From positions 573,765-637,764 of the forward strand of contig CAJIZI010000001.1 in assembly GCA_905181885.1 (NCBI GenBank): DNA of 64,000 nucleotides. Direction: 5' to 3'. The DNA is from an uncultured Gammaproteobacteria bacterium (lineage in GTDB: Bacteria; Pseudomonadota; Gammaproteobacteria; Nitrosococcales; Methylophagaceae). This document shows, piece by piece, positions 2,834 through 62,206 of the stretch. A program made the position numbers and the translations under genes. The notes under the pieces were generated by a model, which made no database searches, was not told the DNA's origin, and saw only the letters and a program-made list of their open reading frames with translations. Within the stretch, counting starts at the first letter, position 1. Every line of letters starts with the position of its first letter.

Positions 2834-2857
2834 CTGGCTGATTTGGAGGAAAAAATA

Positions 2858-3641
2858 ATGAGTGATTTATTTCATTTTGGCACTGCTGCAAAACCATTCG
2901 AATCCCAAACGGAGGGTGATGGTGAGATGTCAAAACAACAGTACATAATGCAATTACTTGGTTTCCCTGGTGATCCGGACACCCTAAAAGTAATGTTAAC
3001 GGCAGCCGAAAAAGGTATAAATGCTGAAACCGCTGTTGTTGATATGTCAACTAAACAACAAGATAGTGACGACTATCGTAAAATTTCTCCACTCGGAATT
3101 TTGCCGGCATTAAAAGAAGCAAATTTTGTCGTTCTGGGTGAACACGGTACATGTGTATTTGTAGAAGGAAAAGGACTAGGCACTTTTCTAGCCCCTCGTA
3201 ATGCTGCGGTATTAGCAGAACAAAACTATTGGATAGACATTGGGCGTACAGAAGTACAGCCCCATGTCGAAACACTAATGCAAGAAATTGTTATAGGGCC
3301 AATGGGTGATGCAGGATATTCTGCAGATGATGCTGCAGTCTGCAGCAGCAAGAACAGCGCTATCAGCACCACTAGATGCCTTAAATGAACAAATCACATC
3401 AAAGTTCATCGTTGGTGAATTTTGCTATGTCGACATTCATTTTACATCATACCTACATTTACTATCAGTAATTGGTGAAGCAGAAATGTTGGATTCACGG
3501 CCTAACGTGAAATCATGGTTTGAACGTATCAAAACTCACAAGAGTTACTCAGGCCAAGATATTTTTGCCTATGATATGTTGCCTTCTCTTGAAGATATCA
3601 AGTCAAAAACATTGGGTGACGTTGATTGCGGAGAATTTTAA
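2858..3641 (+). pseudogene. Glutathione S-transferase-like protein 2 (paralog of the preceding gene), frame interrupted (+1) near nt 3335-3360
   Basis: Same architecture as GST-like 1: MQLLGFPGDPDTLKV...SPLGILPALKE, then in the +1 frame LDALNEQITSKFIVGEFCYVDIHF...VKSWFERIKTHKSY. GGAGG lies 7 nt before the ATG at 2858. Length is 3n+1. Confidence 0.65.
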
Positions 3642-3843: not shown

Positions 3844-5166
3844 TTATTTTTTAAGGATATTGATCCCTTTCAACAAATTAAGGGCCTCAGAGAGTGCGTA
3901 GTCTGTTACAGCTAGAGGGACACTACTTATTTCTTTATCTGTGACTTTCTCAGAAGTATCTGTATCTGTTTTTCCGTTACCATTTGAGATATGCTTTGAT
4001 AGGTCTCGCTCACTTAAAGGCTTAAAGCCAGTATTATTAATGGCAGTAATCTTCACACGCTCAATTGTAATATCAGGAACAATGCCTTCAGCCTGTATAG
4101 AGCGCCCCGATGGGGTAAAGTAGCGTGCTGTGGTCATCTTAACGGCAGTTTTATCGGTTAAAGGCATGACTGTCTGGACGGAGCCTTTACCAAAAGTTTT
4201 AGTCCCTAAAATTACTGCACGGTGATGATCTTGTAGGGCTCCAGCTACAATTTCTGAAGCAGAAGCAGATCCGCCGTTAACCAAAACGACTAAAGGCGCA
4301 CCTTCTAGGAGGTCTCGAGGCTTTGCGTTAAATTCTTGCTTAGAGTCAGGAATTCTTCCATCGGTATAGACAATCAAACCTTTTGTTATAAAGGCATCTG
4401 AGACATCCACAGCAGCATTTAATAAGCCGCCAGGATTATTACGCAAATCAAGTACTAAACCACTTAATTTATCATTATTGTCTTTCTTTAACTGTTCAAT
4501 TGCTTTGTTTAAGCCTTCGCTAGTACGTTGCTGGAAAGTGCTAATTCTTACATAGCCATAACCAGGCTCAAGAGTCTTATGTTTAACACTTTTTACTTTG
4601 ATGATGGCACGAGTTAAGGTGATATTTAGCGGCTTGTCCTCACCTTCGCGGAGGATCGTTATTAATAGATCTGTGCCAGGCTTACCACGCATCATATCCA
4701 CAGCTTCACGCAACGCCATGCCTTTGACCGGTTTTTTGTCGAGACGGATAATTAAGTCTCCTGCTAATACGCCAGCTTCAGCTGCAGGGGTATCATCGAT
4801 AGGAGATACGACACGCACAAAGCCATCTTCCAGTGTGACTTCAATGCCTAGGCCCCCAAATTCACCTGAAGTACCTTCACGGAGGTTTTTAAAATCTTCT
4901 AAATCGAGATAAGTTGAGTGGGGGTCGAGTCCTGATAGCATACCGCGGATAGCATTTTGTAATAACTCTTTATCTTCAACAGGCTCAACGTAATTATTTT
5001 TAATGCGGCCAAATATCTCAGAAAAAGTGCGAAGCTCATTAAGTGGGATATCAGGTTTGGCGCTAGCTGGTGGTTTTTCGGCAAGAACCATTTGGCCAAA
5101 TATTAATGTTGAACCAAGGATAGCTCCGGCCGAAATCAAACCAATATCTCGTCTTAAAAAACTCAT
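3844..5166 (-). CDS. ctpA: Carboxy-terminal processing (S41, tail-specific) protease
   Basis: 440 aa with a signal/TM N-terminus, a PDZ-type segment (GGLGIEV...VVSPIDDTPAAEAGVLAGDLII) and an S41 core (LDLRNNPGG, GSASASEI, TFGKGSVQ). Lies downstream of envC as in many gammaproteobacteria. Confidence 0.85.
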   Translation of the reverse strand: MSFLRRDIGLISAGAILGSTLIFGQMVLAEKPPASAKPDIPLNELRTFSEIFGRIKNNYVEPVEDKELLQNAIRGMLSGLDPHSTYLDLEDFKNLREGTSGEFGGLGIEVTLEDGFVRVVSPIDDTPAAEAGVLAGDLIIRLDKKPVKGMALREAVDMMRGKPGTDLLITILREGEDKPLNITLTRAIIKVKSVKHKTLEPGYGYVRISTFQQRTSEGLNKAIEQLKKDNNDKLSGLVLDLRNNPGGLLNAAVDVSDAFITKGLIVYTDGRIPDSKQEFNAKPRDLLEGAPLVVLVNGGSASASEIVAGALQDHHRAVILGTKTFGKGSVQTVMPLTDKTAVKMTTARYFTPSGRSIQAEGIVPDITIERVKITAINNTGFKPLSERDLSKHISNGNGKTDTDTSEKVTDKEISSVPLAVTDYALSEALNLLKGINILKK

Positions 5167-6316
5167 AACTTTTTCCTAGAATAATTATTAACGTTTTTAC
5201 TTAACCATTTTACTGGGTCTGTAGGGTTACCTTGATGTCTAAGCTCAAAGTATAGCCCAGTGTATTGTCTTATACCCTGCTCACCACTCAGCGCGATTAC
5301 GTCACCGGTCGTTACCGAATCACCAGCATTCTTTAGTAGACTCTGATTATTGCCATATAGCGTCATATATTGATCGCCATGATCAATAATCAATAATAAT
5401 CCAAAGCCTCTTAACCAGTCGGAGAATACCACACGACCTGGTGCAGTGGAGATAATTTCTTCACCTAGAGGTGCATTAATCATCATGCCTTGCCATGTCA
5501 GTTTGCCAAGATTTCTGGAACTTCCATAGCGAGCTATGACTTTTCCTTGAATAGGCCATGCCAGTGTACTTTTCCTCTCAGAAAATGGGAGGTCTAAAAT
5601 AAGTGGTTTAGATTTTATTGATAGAGATTGGAGTAAAGATTTTAAAGCACGCTCCTGTTCTTGTAATGTAGTGACTCGAACACCTTGTTTTTCCATCTTG
5701 CGATCCAATTGCTTGGCAGTCAGAATCGTTGTTTCCGTTCTTTTTTTAACAGTTGTTGTTGGAGTTGCTGTTCTTGATAAAGCGCTTGATGCTGTTGCTG
5801 GGCAATAAGTAGTATTTGTCTGTTATGAGTAAGTGTTTTTAGACTGGCGCTGATCTCAATTAACTGCTCTTGGCGAGCATGATGAAAATAGGCGTAGTAA
5901 GCGCTAGTTCGACTCAAGCTAGATGGCTCGTGCTGGCTTAGTAAGACTTTTAAATAATTGGGGCTGGTATTTAAGTAAGCGGACCGTAGCTGTTTTGCAA
6001 GAGCATCTAATTGCTTGGCATGTGATTGACGGTATTTCTGTTTATCTTTCTCTAACTTATCGAGTTCATCATTTTTTATTTTAAGTTTACGAGTCGAGTC
6101 TAGTAATGAGCGATTAAGTGTTGAAATGACTTTGCTTTGTTTTTCAAGCTGATCGTGCAAATCGGCCCTAGATTTTTTAGTTTCATCTAGTGATTTAGTC
6201 AAAGACTTTATTTCAGCTTGCACGTTTTCTAAACGCTGGACAGAGTCAGTTTCAGCCCTCACATTTGCTGAGAAGACTAATAAAAAGAAAAAACAATAAA
6301 AAGTGCGTATTTTCAT
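5163..6316 (-). pseudogene. envC: Murein hydrolase activator EnvC (coiled-coil + M23/LytM domain), frame broken at an A7 run
   Basis: The N-part has a signal peptide and a Q/L/K-rich coiled coil. The C-part has an M23 domain (IIDHGDQYMTLYGNN...LYFELRHQGNPTDP). The two frames meet at the plus-strand T7 run 5741-5747. Length is 3n+2 (one base short). The gpmI-envC-ctpA order supports the call. Confidence 0.75.
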
Positions 6317-57476: not shown

Positions 57477-57516
57477 AAAAAAAAATGGGCCCAATGTCAA
57501 AGACATCGAGCCCATT
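57477..57516 (-). terminator. Intra-operon hairpin + T9 (terminator/attenuator) between hydroxylase and reductase genes
   Basis: On the minus strand: AATGGGCTCGATGTCTTTGACATTGGGCCCATT followed by T9. An imperfect stem with two mismatches. Confidence 0.55.
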
Positions 57517-57526
57517 CAGGTTTTAT

Positions 57527-58708
57527 CTAGATTGGAGCATGTTTTGAATAATCATCTGGTACGGCGTAGCCAGATTGTTCATTAATTCTTGCAGCAATCT
57601 CTAACTCGCCTTCTGTAGCGAAATCTCTGTCCCATGTTGCTAATTTTTTCTTCATCATCATATGGTATAGAGGTGGAATTAACGCTACAGTAAACTCTGT
57701 AAAGTAACCCCAACGAGCGTTTGGTGAACCTACTTCATCTAATTCCCAGAAGTGAGTTTCGCCACGGTCATGGTGATCACCTTGACGACCGATTTCAATG
57801 AAGAACCAACTTGTGAACAAGTTGCTGTTATCCCATGAATGACGGTAATCAATTGGTTGACCTTTTTCACGAATAAGACCGTAATGCTCCATGTAGTTCA
57901 ACGCTTCTAACTCAAAGTTAGAAATAGTTAATACTAAGAACATTGCAGCTACACCCATAACACCACCAGCATAAGTAAATAATACTAATGTTGGTAAGCT
58001 CATGAAGTAACCACGGATCCAACGGTTTTCAGTTGAAAGGAATGATTTGCCTAATTTAGCTAGACGAGTCTGTTCCATTCTGAACAAGAATTTTGATTGA
58101 CCCATGTGTGACAACCAGAAATGTCTGTAGATAGAACGACCGCGTGGCGAAGTAGCAGGATCATCTTCATGTGCTAGTTCTAGATGGTGGTTGTATACGT
58201 GAGCATACGCAAAGTGTGAAGAACCACTTAAACCCATCATCAAACGAGAAATAACAAAGCTGAAGCCTTTAGTATGAGATAACTCGTGTCCGTAGATAAT
58301 ACCGATACCAGCGAAGATACCTGTAGAAGCTGCAGCAACTGCTAACTCAAGACCTGTAATACCATTTGTCATCGGTATCATGCCGTATAACATAGTAGTT
58401 GTGATAGCAGTACCATCTACATACTGCATTACACGCCATGCTAGAGCAACTTGTAACAAAGCAAATACAGGTAACATAACGTACATTACTGTGTTTTGTA
58501 ATGTTGGCATGCCCATTGTATCGCCGTTGTCATCAAAGCCAGCACCTGGTGGGTGGAAAGGCATAGTGATTGTATCAAGAATGATACCGACACCAAATAG
58601 TGCGATACCTACCCAGACGAACATTCCGCCCAGTATAATACTTGCTAGCGTTACTAATATTAGTATTGGTGCTAGCCAGTATCTGATGTTAATTAAGAGC
58701 TTTTTCAT
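57527..58708 (-). CDS. AlkB/XylM-family integral-membrane non-heme di-iron hydroxylase (fatty-acid-desaturase superfamily), divergent member
   Basis: 393 aa and multi-TM. His boxes HELSH, HVYNHH and NYMEHYGL. The last box reads GRQGDHH instead of the AlkB-type RHSDHH. No rubredoxin gene is nearby. Confidence 0.75.
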   Translation of the reverse strand: MKKLLINIRYWLAPILILVTLASIILGGMFVWVGIALFGVGIILDTITMPFHPPGAGFDDNGDTMGMPTLQNTVMYVMLPVFALLQVALAWRVMQYVDGTAITTTMLYGMIPMTNGITGLELAVAAASTGIFAGIGIIYGHELSHTKGFSFVISRLMMGLSGSSHFAYAHVYNHHLELAHEDDPATSPRGRSIYRHFWLSHMGQSKFLFRMEQTRLAKLGKSFLSTENRWIRGYFMSLPTLVLFTYAGGVMGVAAMFLVLTISNFELEALNYMEHYGLIREKGQPIDYRHSWDNSNLFTSWFFIEIGRQGDHHDRGETHFWELDEVGSPNARWGYFTEFTVALIPPLYHMMMKKKLATWDRDFATEGELEIAARINEQSGYAVPDDYSKHAPI

Positions 58709-58842
58709 GGTATAAATACCCCGTAAAAATTAATTTTAATATATTGTTGATAAACAACTAGGTAAGCAAAAACTTACTGTTTATATTAGTCGAAAAATTT
58801 CGAACTAGTAGCCATCATATTTGACAACCTTGACATTTGTAA

Positions 58843-58882
58843 TACGTAATTATACAAAGAAAGATTATTGTATAACTACGTA
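58843..58882. promoter_or_regulatory. Operator copy 1: inverted repeat TACGTAATTATACAA-N10-TTGTATAACTACGTA
   Basis: 15-10-15 inverted repeat with one mismatch, about 150 nt upstream of the AlkB-like ATG. Two TTGACA hexamers (58821-58826 and 58830-58835) lie just to its left. Confidence 0.6.
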
Positions 58883-59021
58883 TATTGTTACTAACTTTTA
58901 AACTCTATAAAGTTATATTATTCTTATAAATCAATTGTATAAGTAAAAATTTATATTACTTTTCTCAACCAATGTATTCAGAACCAATGAGCATTCTATG
59001 CTGAGAGTAGCTTGTTTGAAA

Positions 59022-59060
59022 TACGTAATTATACAAAGAAATCATATTGTATAACTACTA
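59022..59060. promoter_or_regulatory. Operator copy 2: GTAATTATACAA-N10-TTGTATAACTAC with overlapping candidate promoter
   Basis: Same arms as copy 1, 179 bp to its right. The right arm TTGTAT (59047-59052) sits 17 nt from TACTAT (59070-59075), a plausible sigma70 promoter about 25 nt before the ybgA-like ATG. Confidence 0.6.
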
Positions 59061-59098
59061 GGTTGTTGTTACTATACATATAGTAGTTAGAGGATATA

Positions 59099-59905
59099 AT
59101 GAAAATTAAAGTTGGATTAAGCAGCTGTCTGATGGGTAACAACGTTCGTTTCGATGGTGGCCATAAACACTCGAAGATGTGTAGTCAGAATTTAGCTCGT
59201 CATTTTGATTTCATCTCAGAAGGTTCAGAATTTGGAATTGGGATGGGAACCCCCAGGAAACCAATTCGTCTGATTGGTGATGTTAACTCACCTTTAACCG
59301 TTTCAACTCAGGACAATGCTATCGACCATACTAAAAAAATGGTTGAATTTAGCTACCAAAAAGCCAAAGAATATTCAGAGCTACCTATAGAAGAGTCAGG
59401 CAGGTTAATAGCCCCCTCGTTGGGTGAAAACTTTATTACCCGTGTTTTTGCTTATCATAAATGGCAGCAATTAAAACAGGTTGGCTTTACCTACCACGGT
59501 ATCATCGAGTTTCACTCAAGCTATAAATATAGCTTGATGGCACATTCACCAGCCAGCTACATTGAGCTTGGGAGAATGTTAGCTGATGCGGGTAAGCGCG
59601 AGGTCGATGATTTAGCTGAGTGCTACTTCCCCTTGTTAATGAGTGCACTAGGTAAAGTTGCGACACGAAAAACACACACTAACGTGCTGATGCATATACA
59701 GGGCTACTTAAAAAGAGTGCTCTCTAGCATAGAGAAACATGAGTTATCCAAGCTTATTAATCAGTATCGTTTAGCTCAAATACCCTTAATCGTTCCGATA
59801 ACATTATTAAAACACCATTTTAGTAATCATCCTCATTCCTATATAGCTAAGCAAGTCTATCTAGAGCCTTACCCTGATGACTTGAGCTTACGCAATGCAA
59901 TCTAA
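59099..59905 (+). CDS. YbgA-like DUF1722 protein with a degenerate, truncated N-terminal DUF523-like segment
   Basis: The N-terminus KVGLSSCLMGNNVRFDGGHK resembles DUF523. The usual PVCPE is SEGSE here and about 55 residues (the SPSCG region) appear to be missing. The C-terminal two thirds (ENFITRVFAYHKW...YKYSLMAHS...HTNVLMHIQGY) fit DUF1722. It lies upstream of the photolyase gene, like E. coli ybgA-phr. Confidence 0.65.
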   Translation: MKIKVGLSSCLMGNNVRFDGGHKHSKMCSQNLARHFDFISEGSEFGIGMGTPRKPIRLIGDVNSPLTVSTQDNAIDHTKKMVEFSYQKAKEYSELPIEESGRLIAPSLGENFITRVFAYHKWQQLKQVGFTYHGIIEFHSSYKYSLMAHSPASYIELGRMLADAGKREVDDLAECYFPLLMSALGKVATRKTHTNVLMHIQGYLKRVLSSIEKHELSKLINQYRLAQIPLIVPITLLKHHFSNHPHSYIAKQVYLEPYPDDLSLRNAI

Positions 59906-60803
59906 AAATGAAATTAATATAAGTGAGGTATGCCAACAAACAGGTGTTGCTGCAGTTACATTGAGAGCATGGGAAAGGCGTTATGGGCTCATAAAACCAA
60001 AAAGAACACCAAAAGGTCACCGCTTATATAGCCAGGCTAACATTCAAGAAATAATTAAGATTGTTGGCTGGCTGAATCGTGGAGTGGCAATTAGTAAAGT
60101 TGTAGAATTACTGTCTGCTGCAGAAACGCCAACGCAAGTCAGCGGAAATGAAGAGTCATGGCAGGAAGTACAGCAAGAACTGTTAAGTATACTCATAGAT
60201 CTTAAGCAGAGAAGTTTGAATCCACTTCTCGATAAGTTGAATAAATCAATGCCATTTGAAAGCTTGTGTGAAAAAGTTTACCAACCACTTTTGCATCAAC
60301 TAATGGAACGTTGGCAAAGTAAGCAACTGGGCTATCAATTAGAACAGCAGCTCTGGCAGCAATGCTGGCAGAGGCAGGTAACTCTCATGGCCTTGCGTGC
60401 TGATAAGCAAAAATCGCGAGTTAATTGTTGGTTAGTCAACTTAGACAACCAATCGTCGGCATTTGATTATTGGTTTTTTTATGCTCTTTTATTACAGTCG
60501 GGTATTCAGATCAATGCCATTAATCAGGTGAGTGACTTGAGTGCTCTGACAAGGCTTAGAAATTCACTAGAACAACCCTTAATTATTTTCGGTGATAACA
60601 AAATGGTTACGCAAGAAATTAATCAAGTAGTTAAGGCCAAGGCTCTATGGGGCAGGGATTCAATTGTCATTGGTCTTGTGGCTGACATACATCAGAAGCT
60701 ATTTGTAAATATGGAGATTGAGCACATAGGTGGCAATGCCATTACATGTTGGCAGTCAAGTTGTTACCAGTCATGGGTTGGGCGTTTGGCAGCAAAGGGA
60801 TGA
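59895..60803 (+). CDS. MerR-family transcriptional regulator, LitR-like architecture without recognisable B12 ligands (class II LitR-like)
   Basis: MerR HTH (ISEVCQQTGVAAVTLRAWERRYGLIKPKRTPKGHRLY) plus a C-terminal domain of about 200 aa. Overlaps the ybgA-like stop. Its own stop overlaps the photolyase ATG (ATGA). Confidence 0.7.
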   Translation: MQSKNEINISEVCQQTGVAAVTLRAWERRYGLIKPKRTPKGHRLYSQANIQEIIKIVGWLNRGVAISKVVELLSAAETPTQVSGNEESWQEVQQELLSILIDLKQRSLNPLLDKLNKSMPFESLCEKVYQPLLHQLMERWQSKQLGYQLEQQLWQQCWQRQVTLMALRADKQKSRVNCWLVNLDNQSSAFDYWFFYALLLQSGIQINAINQVSDLSALTRLRNSLEQPLIIFGDNKMVTQEINQVVKAKALWGRDSIVIGLVADIHQKLFVNMEIEHIGGNAITCWQSSCYQSWVGRLAAKG

Positions 60804-62206
60804 GAAATCAGTTAGTTTGGTTTCGTAATGATCTACGGATAAATGATAATCCGGCCTTATTTTATGCAAGTGAAAGCGGCGAGCCCACTATTGCTGTTTA
60901 TGTTGCAACGCCACAGCAATGGCAATTACACGATGATGCTCATAGTAAAATAGATTTTTGGCGACGAAATCTACATTGTTTGTATGATTCGCTTGCAGAA
61001 CTCAATATCACTTTGCATTTTTTTCAGGTACCGACTTATCAACAGGTCCCAGATCTAATTACATCAGTTTGTGAGCAATGGAATATAAGTCAACTACATT
61101 TTAATCAACAGTATGCTGTCAATGAACAGGAAAGAGATCAGCATGTCGTCGATGTTTGTAGTCAGATAGATGTGCAAACACACAGCTATAATGAGCAGTT
61201 ATTATTAACACCAAAAAGTGTTCGAACTAAAGTTGGTGAGCCGTTCAAAGTCTTTACGCCCTTTGCAAGACAGGCAAGACAACAAATGCAAGAGCCCTTG
61301 GTGATGCTACCAGCACCCAAAAGACAAAATAGTATTAAAGTGACTCGCTTGCGTGAAGAGCTTGAGCTTCAAGACGTATCTTGGGTATCTGTAGGAAAGG
61401 CTGTACAAGATATGTGGCCTGCAGGTGAAGAGTCAGCAGAAGTTAAACTAATCCATTTCTATGAGAACAATATTCAGAGTTACGAACAAAACCGAGACTC
61501 CCCATCGGTTTCCGGCACCAGCCAGCTATCTCCTTACCTAGCTAGTGGTGTTATTTCGATAAAACAATGTTGGCATGCTACAACTCACTATTGTGGGCGT
61601 TCAGATAGCGTAATAGTATGGCAGAATGAATTGTTATGGCGTGAGTTTTATAACCACATTCTTATTGATTACCCTCAAATATCAAAACATAAGCCATGGA
61701 AAATAAAAACAGACACTATCCAGTGGCGAGATAATGAGACTGAATTGAGAGCCTGGCAACTAGGGCAAACTGGTTTTCCAATTATTGATGCAGCGATGCG
61801 TCAGTTGCTCAGTTGTGGCTGGATGCACAACCGCCTAAGAATGATTACAGCGATGTTTTTAAGTAAACACTTAATGATCGATTGGCGATTAGGCGAACGA
61901 TGGTTTATGAAACATCTCATTGATGGAGATTTAGCTGCTAATAATGGAGGTTGGCAGTGGTGCGCATCAACAGGCACCGATGCAGTACCTTATTTTAGAC
62001 TATTCAATCCTGTCAGACAGTCTGAAAGATTCGATCCAGAAGGGAAGTTTATCCGCCATTATTTACCAGAGCTATCAGCTTTAAGTAATAAAGAAATTCA
62101 TTTCCCAATAAAAAACAGACCTGAAGAATACCCGATGCCTATAATTGATCTAGCTGATGGGCGTAAGCGAGTCCTTGCAGAATTCAAGGCATTAGGTACG
62201 AAGTGA
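60800..62206 (+). CDS. phrB: Deoxyribodipyrimidine photolyase (class I CPD type)
   Basis: Start at MRNQLVWFRNDLRINDNPAL. TGFPIIDAAMRQL, GWMHNRLRMI, NNGGWQW and YFRLFNP motifs. Confidence 0.92.
   Translation: MRNQLVWFRNDLRINDNPALFYASESGEPTIAVYVATPQQWQLHDDAHSKIDFWRRNLHCLYDSLAELNITLHFFQVPTYQQVPDLITSVCEQWNISQLHFNQQYAVNEQERDQHVVDVCSQIDVQTHSYNEQLLLTPKSVRTKVGEPFKVFTPFARQARQQMQEPLVMLPAPKRQNSIKVTRLREELELQDVSWVSVGKAVQDMWPAGEESAEVKLIHFYENNIQSYEQNRDSPSVSGTSQLSPYLASGVISIKQCWHATTHYCGRSDSVIVWQNELLWREFYNHILIDYPQISKHKPWKIKTDTIQWRDNETELRAWQLGQTGFPIIDAAMRQLLSCGWMHNRLRMITAMFLSKHLMIDWRLGERWFMKHLIDGDLAANNGGWQWCASTGTDAVPYFRLFNPVRQSERFDPEGKFIRHYLPELSALSNKEIHFPIKNRPEEYPMPIIDLADGRKRVLAEFKALGTK

Follow-up and report, generated by a model that had tools for sequence, protein, structure and literature searches.

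Among described light-responsive regulators, the closest counterparts of the system considered here are the class II LitR proteins of Pseudomonas, namely PplR1 of P. putida KT2440 and PmlR1 and PmlR2 of P. mendocina NBRC 14162. The PplR1 consensus of class II LitR is 5'-T(G/A)TACA-N12-TGTA(C/T)A-3' (PMC9758184). PmlR2 protects two such sites in the P. mendocina P6650 promoter, one of which overlaps the -35 element, with a DNase I footprint about 80-90 nucleotides (nt) wide, and changing TGTACA to AAGCTT abolishes its binding (PMC9758184). In run-off transcription in vitro PmlR2 acts as a repressor, and a blue-light-activated short LOV protein relieves the repression (PMC9758184). Here we analyze a duplicated palindromic element in a 64-kb stretch of contig CAJIZI010000001.1; this whole stretch is called the window. 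The element occupies the intergenic region 58709-59098, between an alkB-like gene on the minus strand and a rudS/ybgA-like gene on the plus strand. Orthologous and related loci from genome and metagenome collections are designated by L-numbers (L001, etc.); related contigs are labelled Methylophagaceae, Piscirickettsiaceae or uncultured Gammaproteobacteria. The genes flanking the element are as follows.

57527-58708, minus strand: AlkB/XylM-like membrane di-iron hydroxylase of the FA_desaturase family (Pfam; PDB AlkB 8SBB, E 8.6e-27)
59099-59905, plus strand: rudS/ybgA remnant with a damaged TudS and an intact DUF1722 domain (domain search; 46-residue in-frame deletion, CPE changed to GSE)
59895-60803, plus strand: LitR/CarH-family MerR regulator, class II-like, 302 amino acids (aa) (Pfam MerR helix-turn-helix; weak MlrA_helical and B12-binding_2 matches)
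60800-62206, plus strand: class I deoxyribodipyrimidine photolyase phrB (NCBIfam PRK10674, 517 bits at a cut-off of 506)

With a probability of about 75%, both copies of the element are operators of the class II-like LitR encoded 0.8 kb downstream, which would switch the hydroxylase gene together with the photolyase gene. The half-sites and their spacing are the same as those of the Pseudomonas class II proteins. The likeness extends to a site overlapping the -35 element of the rudS-litR-phrB promoter (light-inducible in Pseudomonas), to the presence of two sites per control region, as in P. mendocina P6650, and to a regulator composed of a MerR domain and a four-helix bundle, devoid of B12 motifs and encoded near ufa genes. 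The related P. stutzeri locus L116 has the gene arrangement of the light-induced P. mendocina genes PME_6655-6620. The differences concern the host, a marine Methylophagaceae/Piscirickettsiaceae-like bacterium, and the nature of the two sites, which are copies of a 179-bp module in the window but a -35 site and a leader site in P. mendocina. Moreover, the P. mendocina list of light-induced genes does not contain the AlkB/XylM-like hydroxylase that is the divergent target in the window. The type of light switch is a known one; its points of interest here are the retained duplication of the whole module and the apparent hydroxylase target.

Three other groups of regulators resemble the system in part. 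CarH, or class I LitR, comprises adenosylcobalamin (AdoB12)-dependent light-sensing repressors of Thermus thermophilus, Myxococcus xanthus and Bacillus megaterium. They have the same predicted fold as the regulator of the window and repress, in the dark, a promoter overlapping the operator, which is also what is proposed for the window; unlike them, the window regulator has no B12 motifs. The operator of T. thermophilus CarH consists of 11-bp direct repeats, whereas the operator in the window is an inverted repeat. Canonical MerR, CueR and SoxR share an N-terminal MerR helix-turn-helix (HTH) domain and a palindromic site, but the site in the window lies over and upstream of the -35 element of a promoter with a 17-nt spacer, and the regulator has about 300 aa with a CarH-like C-terminus; given this position and architecture, the DNA-distortion mechanism of canonical MerR does not fit. 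In Vibrio cholerae, the MerR-like protein VCA0056, encoded upstream of phr, is itself blue-light-induced, and part of the response to blue light depends on it (PMC5241685). As in the window, a MerR-family gene adjoins the photolyase gene there. Vibrio LitRs belong to class IV, and no operator was defined for VCA0056 in that work (PMC5241685).

The putative operator and its regulator

A unit of about 55 bp with a palindrome, reported in a preliminary description of this DNA, is indeed present twice, in the same orientation and 179 bp apart. The repeat finder delimited copies of 44 nt that are 91% identical, with a start-to-start spacing of 179.

58836-58879, unstranded: direct repeat copy 1, 44 nt (repeat finder, family D1)
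59015-59058, unstranded: direct repeat copy 2, 44 nt (repeat finder, family D1)

Two blocks do not differ between the copies, one of 22 nt (AATACGTAATTATACAAAGAAA; 58841-58862 and 59020-59041) and one of 13 nt (ATTGTATAACTAC; 58867-58879 and 59046-59058). After a 3-nt indel the similarity continues through TTGTTACTA, in agreement with the preliminary description. In copy 1 the inverted repeat has 16-nt arms (58842-58857 and 58868-58883) that are 94% complementary and separated by 10 nt; in copy 2 the arms are 12 nt long (59025-59036 and 59047-59058) and 92% complementary. Arms of 15 nt had been proposed earlier: the inverted repeat is real, but its LitR-specific part covers only about 8-12 nt per arm. 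Exact pattern search recovered the repeat TTATACAA-N10-TTGTATAA claimed for each copy, with just these two matches in 64 kb.

58850-58875, unstranded: LitR-type operator core of copy 1, TTATACAA-N10-TTGTATAA (TATACA at 58851-58856, TGTATA at 58869-58874; 34.6 bits)
59029-59054, unstranded: LitR-type operator core of copy 2, TTATACAA-N10-TTGTATAA (hexamers at 59030-59035 and 59048-59053; 33.6 bits)

Both copies read TATACA-N12-TGTATA, an exact fit to T(G/A)TACA-N12-TGTA(C/T)A. The weight matrix used for scoring was built from the two window copies and 11 sites of relatives, which accounts for part of the high scores of the window copies; their 34.6 and 33.6 bits compare with a maximum of 15.3 over 100 Markov-shuffled windows. 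Only three sites in the 64 kb exceed this null. With only three such sites in the weight-matrix scan of the window, the motif is most probably not a generic element of the repetitive extragenic palindromic (REP) type, a possibility raised at the outset. Additional half-sites noted earlier at 58934 and 59081 exist as written but are not conserved in relatives. The first reads ATTGTATAAGTA in the window, ACTATCTAAGCA in L086 and ATCGTTTAAACA in L001; the second has one base different in L086 (TAATAGTTA) and lies past the end of the L001 match to the window. For lack of conservation both were rejected as operators and treated as chance occurrences.

The region upstream of the merR operon was available for 13 lineages (the window, L001 with L108 and L110, L002, L003, L004, L005, L008, L086, L088 with L089 and L090, L097, L099, L123 and L124), and each of them contained one or two exact consensus matches there; the identity of their MerR proteins to that of the window ranges between 89% and 48%. 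The core motif was still present in L003, L005, L123 and L124, which have no alkB-like gene and where the divergent neighbor is the epimerase of the ufa cluster. Among 80 fetched alkB-like loci (about 680 kb), the exact consensus was found in three only (L008, L030 and L010), each time upstream of the alkB-like gene; L008 adjoins this type of merR, and L030 and L010 are paralogous loci in genomes with this merR elsewhere. In about 70 alkB-like loci without such a merR neighbor, no exact consensus match was found anywhere in the fetched locus. Since the motif is kept where the alkB-like gene is absent and is missing from alkB-like loci without merR, it follows, judging by this distribution, the regulator and not the alkB-like gene. 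When 596 Gb of genomes were scanned with ACGTANTTATACAA-N10-TTGTAYA, 12 stretches matched. Seven were homologous regions upstream of alkB-like genes, of which six are shared with merR, and the other five were isolated matches in Firmicutes and Spirochaetes, about the number expected by chance. The complete 1.95-Mb chromosome of a relative contained one match to the extended pattern.

The N-terminal HTH domain of the regulator was recognized by Pfam (MerR_1, E 3.2e-15; MerR, E 2.6e-12), with weak matches to B12-binding_2 (E 0.0086) and MlrA_helical (E 0.001). An AlphaFold model based on a 29-sequence alignment had a mean predicted local distance difference test (pLDDT) score of 87, and the best PDB matches found by Foldseek were full-length T. 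thermophilus CarH (5C8E and 5C8D; E down to 2.5e-10, about 295 aligned columns). The family profile aligns to CarH over the HTH domain and the four-helix bundle, and the DNA-binding domain is close to CarH/class I LitR (E 2.7e-13). The B12-binding motifs of CarH are Wx9EH and E/DxHxxG. A regular-expression search found [ED]xHxxG in neither the regulator nor any of the 29 aligned homologues; Wx9EH reads Wx9EQ in the regulator and occurs in just 1 of the 29 homologues. On these motifs, an assignment to class I LitR/CarH, that is, an AdoB12 photoreceptor, was rejected. The nearest proteins outside the clade were Pseudomonas MerR proteins with a B12-binding_2 match, not those of Vibrio. Identity was 43% over 191 residues to the regulator of the P. 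stutzeri rudS-litR-phrB operon (L116), and only 29-31% over the full length to the Pseudomonas proteins. The order in L116 is epimerase, then, divergently, rudS-litR-phrB-SnoaL-SDR-UfaD-DUF1365-UfaM, and the order rudS-litR-phrB near ufa genes in the window matches both L116 and the P. mendocina table. By predicted fold, motif loss and gene order, the regulator can be classified as a class II-like LitR (classes as in PMC9758184).

Putative promoters and duplication of the module

The control region contains promoter-like elements in both directions, together with two further conserved elements.

59047-59075, plus strand: putative rudS'-litR-phr promoter (-35 TTGTAT at 59047-59052, 17-nt spacer, -10 TACTAT at 59070-59075)
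58814-58842, minus strand: putative alkB-like promoter P1 (-35 TTACAA from 58842 to 58837, 17-nt spacer, -10 TATGAT from 58819 to 58814)
58993-59021, minus strand: second leftward promoter-like site, beside copy 2 (promoter scan, TTCAAA-16-TAGAAT or TTTCAA-17-TAGAAT)
58868-58894, plus strand: decayed rightward promoter of copy 1 (TTGTAT, 15-nt spacer, TACTAA; read from sequence)
58843-58848, unstranded: TACGTA box, outer part of the long arm (further copies at 58877-58882 and 59022-59027)
58786-58808, unstranded: conserved inverted repeat TTAGTCGAAAAATTTCGAACTAG, directly downstream of the putative -10 element of the alkB-like gene

The promoter TTGTAT-17-TACTAT proposed in the preliminary description remains a predicted one, and its geometry proved to be conserved in nine other lineages. 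Its -35 element falls within the right operator arm of copy 2, and it is followed by GAGG at 59090-59093 and the ATG at 59099. A right arm serving as the -35 element (TTGTAT or TTGTAC), separated by 17 nt (18 nt in L088) from a TAnnnT hexamer, was found in copy 2 of the window, copy 2 of L001 and L086, and in L002, L003, L005, L008, L088, L123 and L124. The corresponding promoter of copy 1, with a spacer of 15 nt, is degenerate in the window (TACTAA), L086 (TATTAA) and L001 (TGCAAA).

In the leftward direction, P1 touches the outer end of the left arm of copy 1; the promoter scan gave an overlapping ATTACA-18-TATGAT. Every alkB-linked module has a minus-strand TAnnnT hexamer (TATGAT, TAGAAT, TAAGAT, TAAAAT or TAAAGT) at a fixed distance of 31-32 nt from TATACA, and 17-18 nt upstream of this TAnnnT hexamer, directly against the outer arm, there is a weak -35 element (e.g., TTACAA, TTTCAA or TTACAT). 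Equivalents of the second leftward site are TTACAT-17-TAAGAT in L001 and TTTCAA-17-TAGAAT in L086. In all loci, including the single-operator relatives, the distance from the operator to the alkB-like ATG is 135-155 nt, and the same distance is kept in L030, where the operator stands upstream of an alkB-like paralogue without an adjoining merR.

The alkB-like paralogues that are independent of LitR have the same -35/-10 layout as P1, directly preceded by (A/G)GGAT(A/T)TATACGTAT. TACGTA was found at -123 to -151 from the ATG in 12 of the 14 closest alkB-like loci (background rate, 3% of 250-nt windows) and was absent from the merR loci without an alkB-like gene (L003, L005, L123 and L124). In loci L006-L018 the box occupies this position, in many cases as part of (A/G)GGAT(A/T)TATACGTAT. 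Since it occurs at alkB-like loci with or without a LitR site, the outer ATACGTA is not LitR-specific and is best read, from this pattern, as a separate element of the alkB-like promoter overlapping the LitR arm; it may be the site of a second regulator. The stretch 58781-58811 around TTAGTCGAAAAATTTCGAACTAG is invariant in the window, L086 and L001, and similar boxes are present in the LitR-independent paralogues L006, L007, L015 and L018. This repeat could be a second operator or a leader element. The Rfam scan of 58400-59300 at E <= 1 matched nothing, which argues against a riboswitch or small RNA.

The repeat proved to be far longer than the preliminary description had suggested, since gapped local alignment pairs 58763-58900 with 58940-59082.

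58763-59098, unstranded: diverged tandem duplication of a bidirectional promoter-operator module (period about 179 bp; unit 1 about 58763-58939, unit 2 about 58940-59098)

Tandem Repeats Finder reported no repeat here because the units are too diverged outside the operator. Two copies were found in the window, L086 and the L001 group (L001, L108 and L110), with spacings of 179, 177 and 176 bp, respectively. More distant relatives (L002, L004, L008, L088, L097 and L099) have a single operator, located between the alkB-like gene and either rudS-merR or merR directly. In the window, L086 and L001, orthologous copies are more alike than the two copies of one genome; thus, the duplication is older than the split of these lineages, and the sequences indicate no homogenization of the copies by gene conversion. 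The right flank is always ACTACGTAT in copy 1 and always ACTACTAGG in copy 2. Between the same three lineages, the operators were 90-100% identical in copy 1, with all differences in the central spacer, and 97-100% identical in copy 2; the arms were 100% identical in both. The values for the inter-copy spacer (58-70%) and the four-fold degenerate sites of merR and phr (72-81%) were lower, and both operators are therefore under purifying selection. The leftward promoter-like elements were retained beside both copies, while the rightward one of copy 1 decayed. The net arrangement predicted from these elements is one rudS'-litR-phr promoter overlapped by LitR and, probably, two tandem alkB-like promoters flanked by LitR.

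Regulatory model and its alternatives

In the proposed mechanism, LitR would bind TTATACAA-N10-TTGTATAA in the dark and be released under blue light, by analogy with PplR1 and PmlR2 of Pseudomonas, probably via a partner photoreceptor encoded outside the window. LitR bound to copy 2 would cover the -35 element TTGTAT and occlude RNA polymerase, so that the rudS'-litR-phr operon would be self-repressed. Copy 1 abuts the -35 element of the leftward alkB-like promoter, and the second leftward site stands likewise beside copy 2; the hydroxylase gene would in this way be switched in step with the photolyase. A tandem duplication of about 179 bp copied the whole module, after which the rightward promoter of copy 1 decayed and the operators and leftward promoters were kept. 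The motif match, the regulator family, the promoter geometry, the duplication with its conservation and the selection on both copies are the parts of this scheme that can be read directly from the sequence.

The preliminary description had assigned the sites to the adjacent MerR/LitR-like regulator and proposed that they couple the hydroxylase operon to photolyase expression. The consensus, the regulator family and the comparative evidence support this for the hydroxylase gene itself, while the part concerning the reductase and ufa genes is unproven. Beyond the hydroxylase gene, the minus strand encodes a Fer2-FAD-NAD reductase and a 71-aa open reading frame (ORF), and farther on there is an ufa-type cluster (epimerase/DUF1731, amine-oxidase-like, DUF1365, cyclopropane fatty acid (CFA)-synthase-like, MFS, DUF3833 and chalcone-isomerase-like genes). 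Between the hydroxylase and reductase genes lies the following structure.

57483-57517, minus strand: strong terminator-like hairpin of 16 bp with a T-run, immediately past the end of the alkB-like gene

The hairpin is kept in five loci (L111, L007, L008, L108 and L110) despite differing stems. Coupling to the reductase and ufa genes is not established because this conserved hairpin intervenes, and their co-transcription with the alkB-like gene was not supported for the same reason. Judging from the conserved structure, the alkB-like gene may be a transcription unit of its own.

Several observations weigh against the proposed reading or narrow it. The conserved hairpin means that the reductase and ufa genes may escape this control. 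At the alkB-like promoter the operator core is centered near -55 and only touches the -35 element, a position that suits an activator as well. The spacing of the copies is not constant (179, 177 and 176 bp), so that a fixed looping geometry finds no support in it. In L116 of P. stutzeri, five TGTACA hexamers were found upstream of rudS and no N12 pair even with one mismatch, and thus the spacing rule is not universal in the family. A LOV motif (NCRFL) was not found in the six reading frames of the 64-kb window. Finally, DNA binding, light dependence and the direction of control at the alkB-like promoter are predicted by homology to the characterized systems, and any cooperation of the sites is likewise a prediction.

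Activation of the alkB-like promoter by LitR from its site near -55, combined with repression of its own operon, is unlikely. The core beside P1 (58851-58874) does lie upstream of the -35 element (58837-58842), a typical activator position, and the V. cholerae MerR-like protein beside phr has been reported as a 'suppressor or enhancer' (PMC5241685). However, PmlR2, a characterized class II LitR, is a repressor, and a footprint of about 80-90 nt would cover the abutting -35 element; the alkB-like promoter also has recognizable -35 and -10 elements, in a layout kept without LitR in the paralogues. It is quite improbable that only copy 2 works, with copy 1 a leftover of neutral duplication and the alkB-like gene governed by the TACGTA box and the TCGAAA/TTTCGA repeat only. 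Decay of the rightward promoter of copy 1 (15-nt spacer, -10 TACTAA) would fit such a view, and the promoter layout shared by LitR-free paralogues implies that LitR is not needed for expression. The arms of copy 1 nevertheless are 100% identical in three lineages, compared to 58-70% for the spacer and 72-81% for synonymous sites, the lone operator of single-operator relatives lies 135-155 nt from the alkB-like ATG, and L030 retains an operator upstream of its alkB-like paralogue without merR.

Binding of the palindromes by another regulator, such as a factor recognizing the TACGTA box, with the proximity of merR being coincidental, has little probability. The outer ATACGTA, common to alkB-like promoters without LitR sites, indicates that part of the conserved block is another element, but TATACA-N12-TGTAYA tracks merR even where the alkB-like gene is absent (L003, L005, L123 and L124), no exact consensus was found in about 70 alkB-like loci, and the core matches the experimentally defined LitR consensus. 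A canonical MerR activator, bound between the -35 and -10 elements of an over-long spacer and untwisting the DNA on a signal, is highly improbable: the regulator does have a MerR-family HTH, yet the predicted spacer is 17 nt rather than 19-20 nt, the palindrome is centered at about -40, over and upstream of the -35 element, and the protein has the CarH fold and not the short architecture of metal sensors. The least credible explanation is a dispersed REP-like repeat or miniature inverted-repeat transposable element (MITE) with no regulatory role. The unit is AT-rich, palindromic and repeated within an intergenic region, but there are only three strong sites in 64 kb and one match in the complete 1.95-Mb relative, the homologous matches are all at the same syntenic position, and Rfam gave no match.

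If both copies are LitR operators, the class II LitR switch, so far characterized only in Pseudomonas, would extend to marine methylotroph-like Gammaproteobacteria. The comparison provides a clean footprint of the operator together with the two promoters in contact with it, as well as a rare datable tandem duplication of a whole regulatory module, with selection acting on both operators. The hydroxylase gene is annotated as alkane 1-monooxygenase in the source records. Apparent co-switching of this abundant marine gene with a photolyase calls for caution in its use as a marker of hydrocarbon degradation in metagenomes, and suggests a light-dependent function of the hydroxylase that can be tested. 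A tentative and rather speculative extension is that AlkB/XylM-type hydroxylases are recurrent members of bacterial light or photo-oxidative-stress regulons, wired here to a class II-like LitR with retained duplicate modules. In a distant Thiothrix-like clade, at locus L074, the hydroxylase family is again divergent to a LitR/CarH-like gene, though a different one, and phage-like contigs carry a 91% identical copy of the hydroxylase gene. If this extension is true, the substrate of the enzyme would be related to light, for example membrane lipids that are photo-damaged or of the furan type, and the enzyme would not serve alkane catabolism.

In this Thiothrix-like metagenome-assembled genome, the LitR/CarH-like gene (MerR and B12-binding_2 domains) is at 2768-3742 of L074, and its product is about 35% identical to the window protein in the HTH. 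The TRTACA-N12-TGTAYA site was not found in L074. A comparably weak MerR match was obtained by tblastn at the same position in L053, L070, L076, L079, L080, L082, L084 and L085.

Neighboring genes and other loci

In the rudS/ybgA remnant, the 46-residue deletion takes out the segment LCGYIF...SCG, and two of the three TudS Fe-S cysteines would presumably be missing. From the sequence the desulfidase half looks inactivated, with the DUF1722 half intact. The gene is absent in L001, L002, L004, L008, L097 and L099, and a larger internal deletion is apparent in L087. The phrB ORF as listed begins at 60746; the PRK10674 alignment begins at residue 19 of that longer ORF, and in L086 the photolyase gene was called as 468 aa with a 4-nt overlap with merR. 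The likely true start is the ATG at 60800. It overlaps the stop codon of litR (ATGA), an arrangement that suggests translational coupling of litR and phrB.

A third operator-like sequence was found near the opposite end of the window.

1856-1885, unstranded: operator-like TTGTACAA-N10-TTGTATAA (weight matrix 29.7 bits; outside the training set)

Two tandem GST-like genes lie 282 nt downstream of it; the first is homologous (33% identity, E 2e-29) to the GST-like gene in alkB-like operons of other Methylophaga genomes. In the closest relatives the site is broken, in the right arm in L117 (98% GST identity) and in the left arm in L118 (95%), and it is absent in six more distant relatives. Given this degeneration and absence, it was not counted as a member of the regulon and is of doubtful function. 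The central spacer of this third site, ATATTATTTATT, differs little from that of the L109-L113 site, ATATTATTTGTT.

In the same part of the window, genes at 1066-1781, 2167-2833 and 2843-3641 are broken into two reading frames. These are both tandem GST-like genes and the mfnB-like gene for 4-HFC-P synthase, in which Pfam positions 2-73 and 115-227 fall into different ORFs. In L117-L120 the GST-like gene is unbroken, and the frameshift at about 2590 in the window is not in a homopolymer. The split ORFs reflect either gene decay in the lineage of the window or assembly errors.

The alkB-like gene also occurs in other contexts. In L015 (4001-7900; also in L012-L018), the alkB-like operon consists of the alkB-like gene, a truncated globin, a GST-like gene, the reductase and a small membrane protein; the globin and GST genes are missing from this operon in the window and L111. 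Loci L109, L111-L113 and L010 encode alkB-like proteins of 95-97% identity in a second context, divergent to VWA and CbbQ/AAA_5 genes. A LitR-type site there precedes the alkB-like ATG by about 400 bp (by about 335 bp in L010), well away from the TACGTA box and nearer to the VWA gene. The interpretation of L010 and L109 as an insertion splitting the operator was rejected: the supposed left flank is the normal alkB-like promoter box GGGAT(A/T)TATACGTATT, and the LitR-type site lies further upstream. No LitR site was found upstream of the alkB-like gene in L114 and L115, two phage-like contigs on which a 91% identical alkB-like gene (5001-6179) adjoins genes for ribonucleotide reductase, DUF3310 and Phage_endo_I; in these loci it may be a phage auxiliary metabolic gene.

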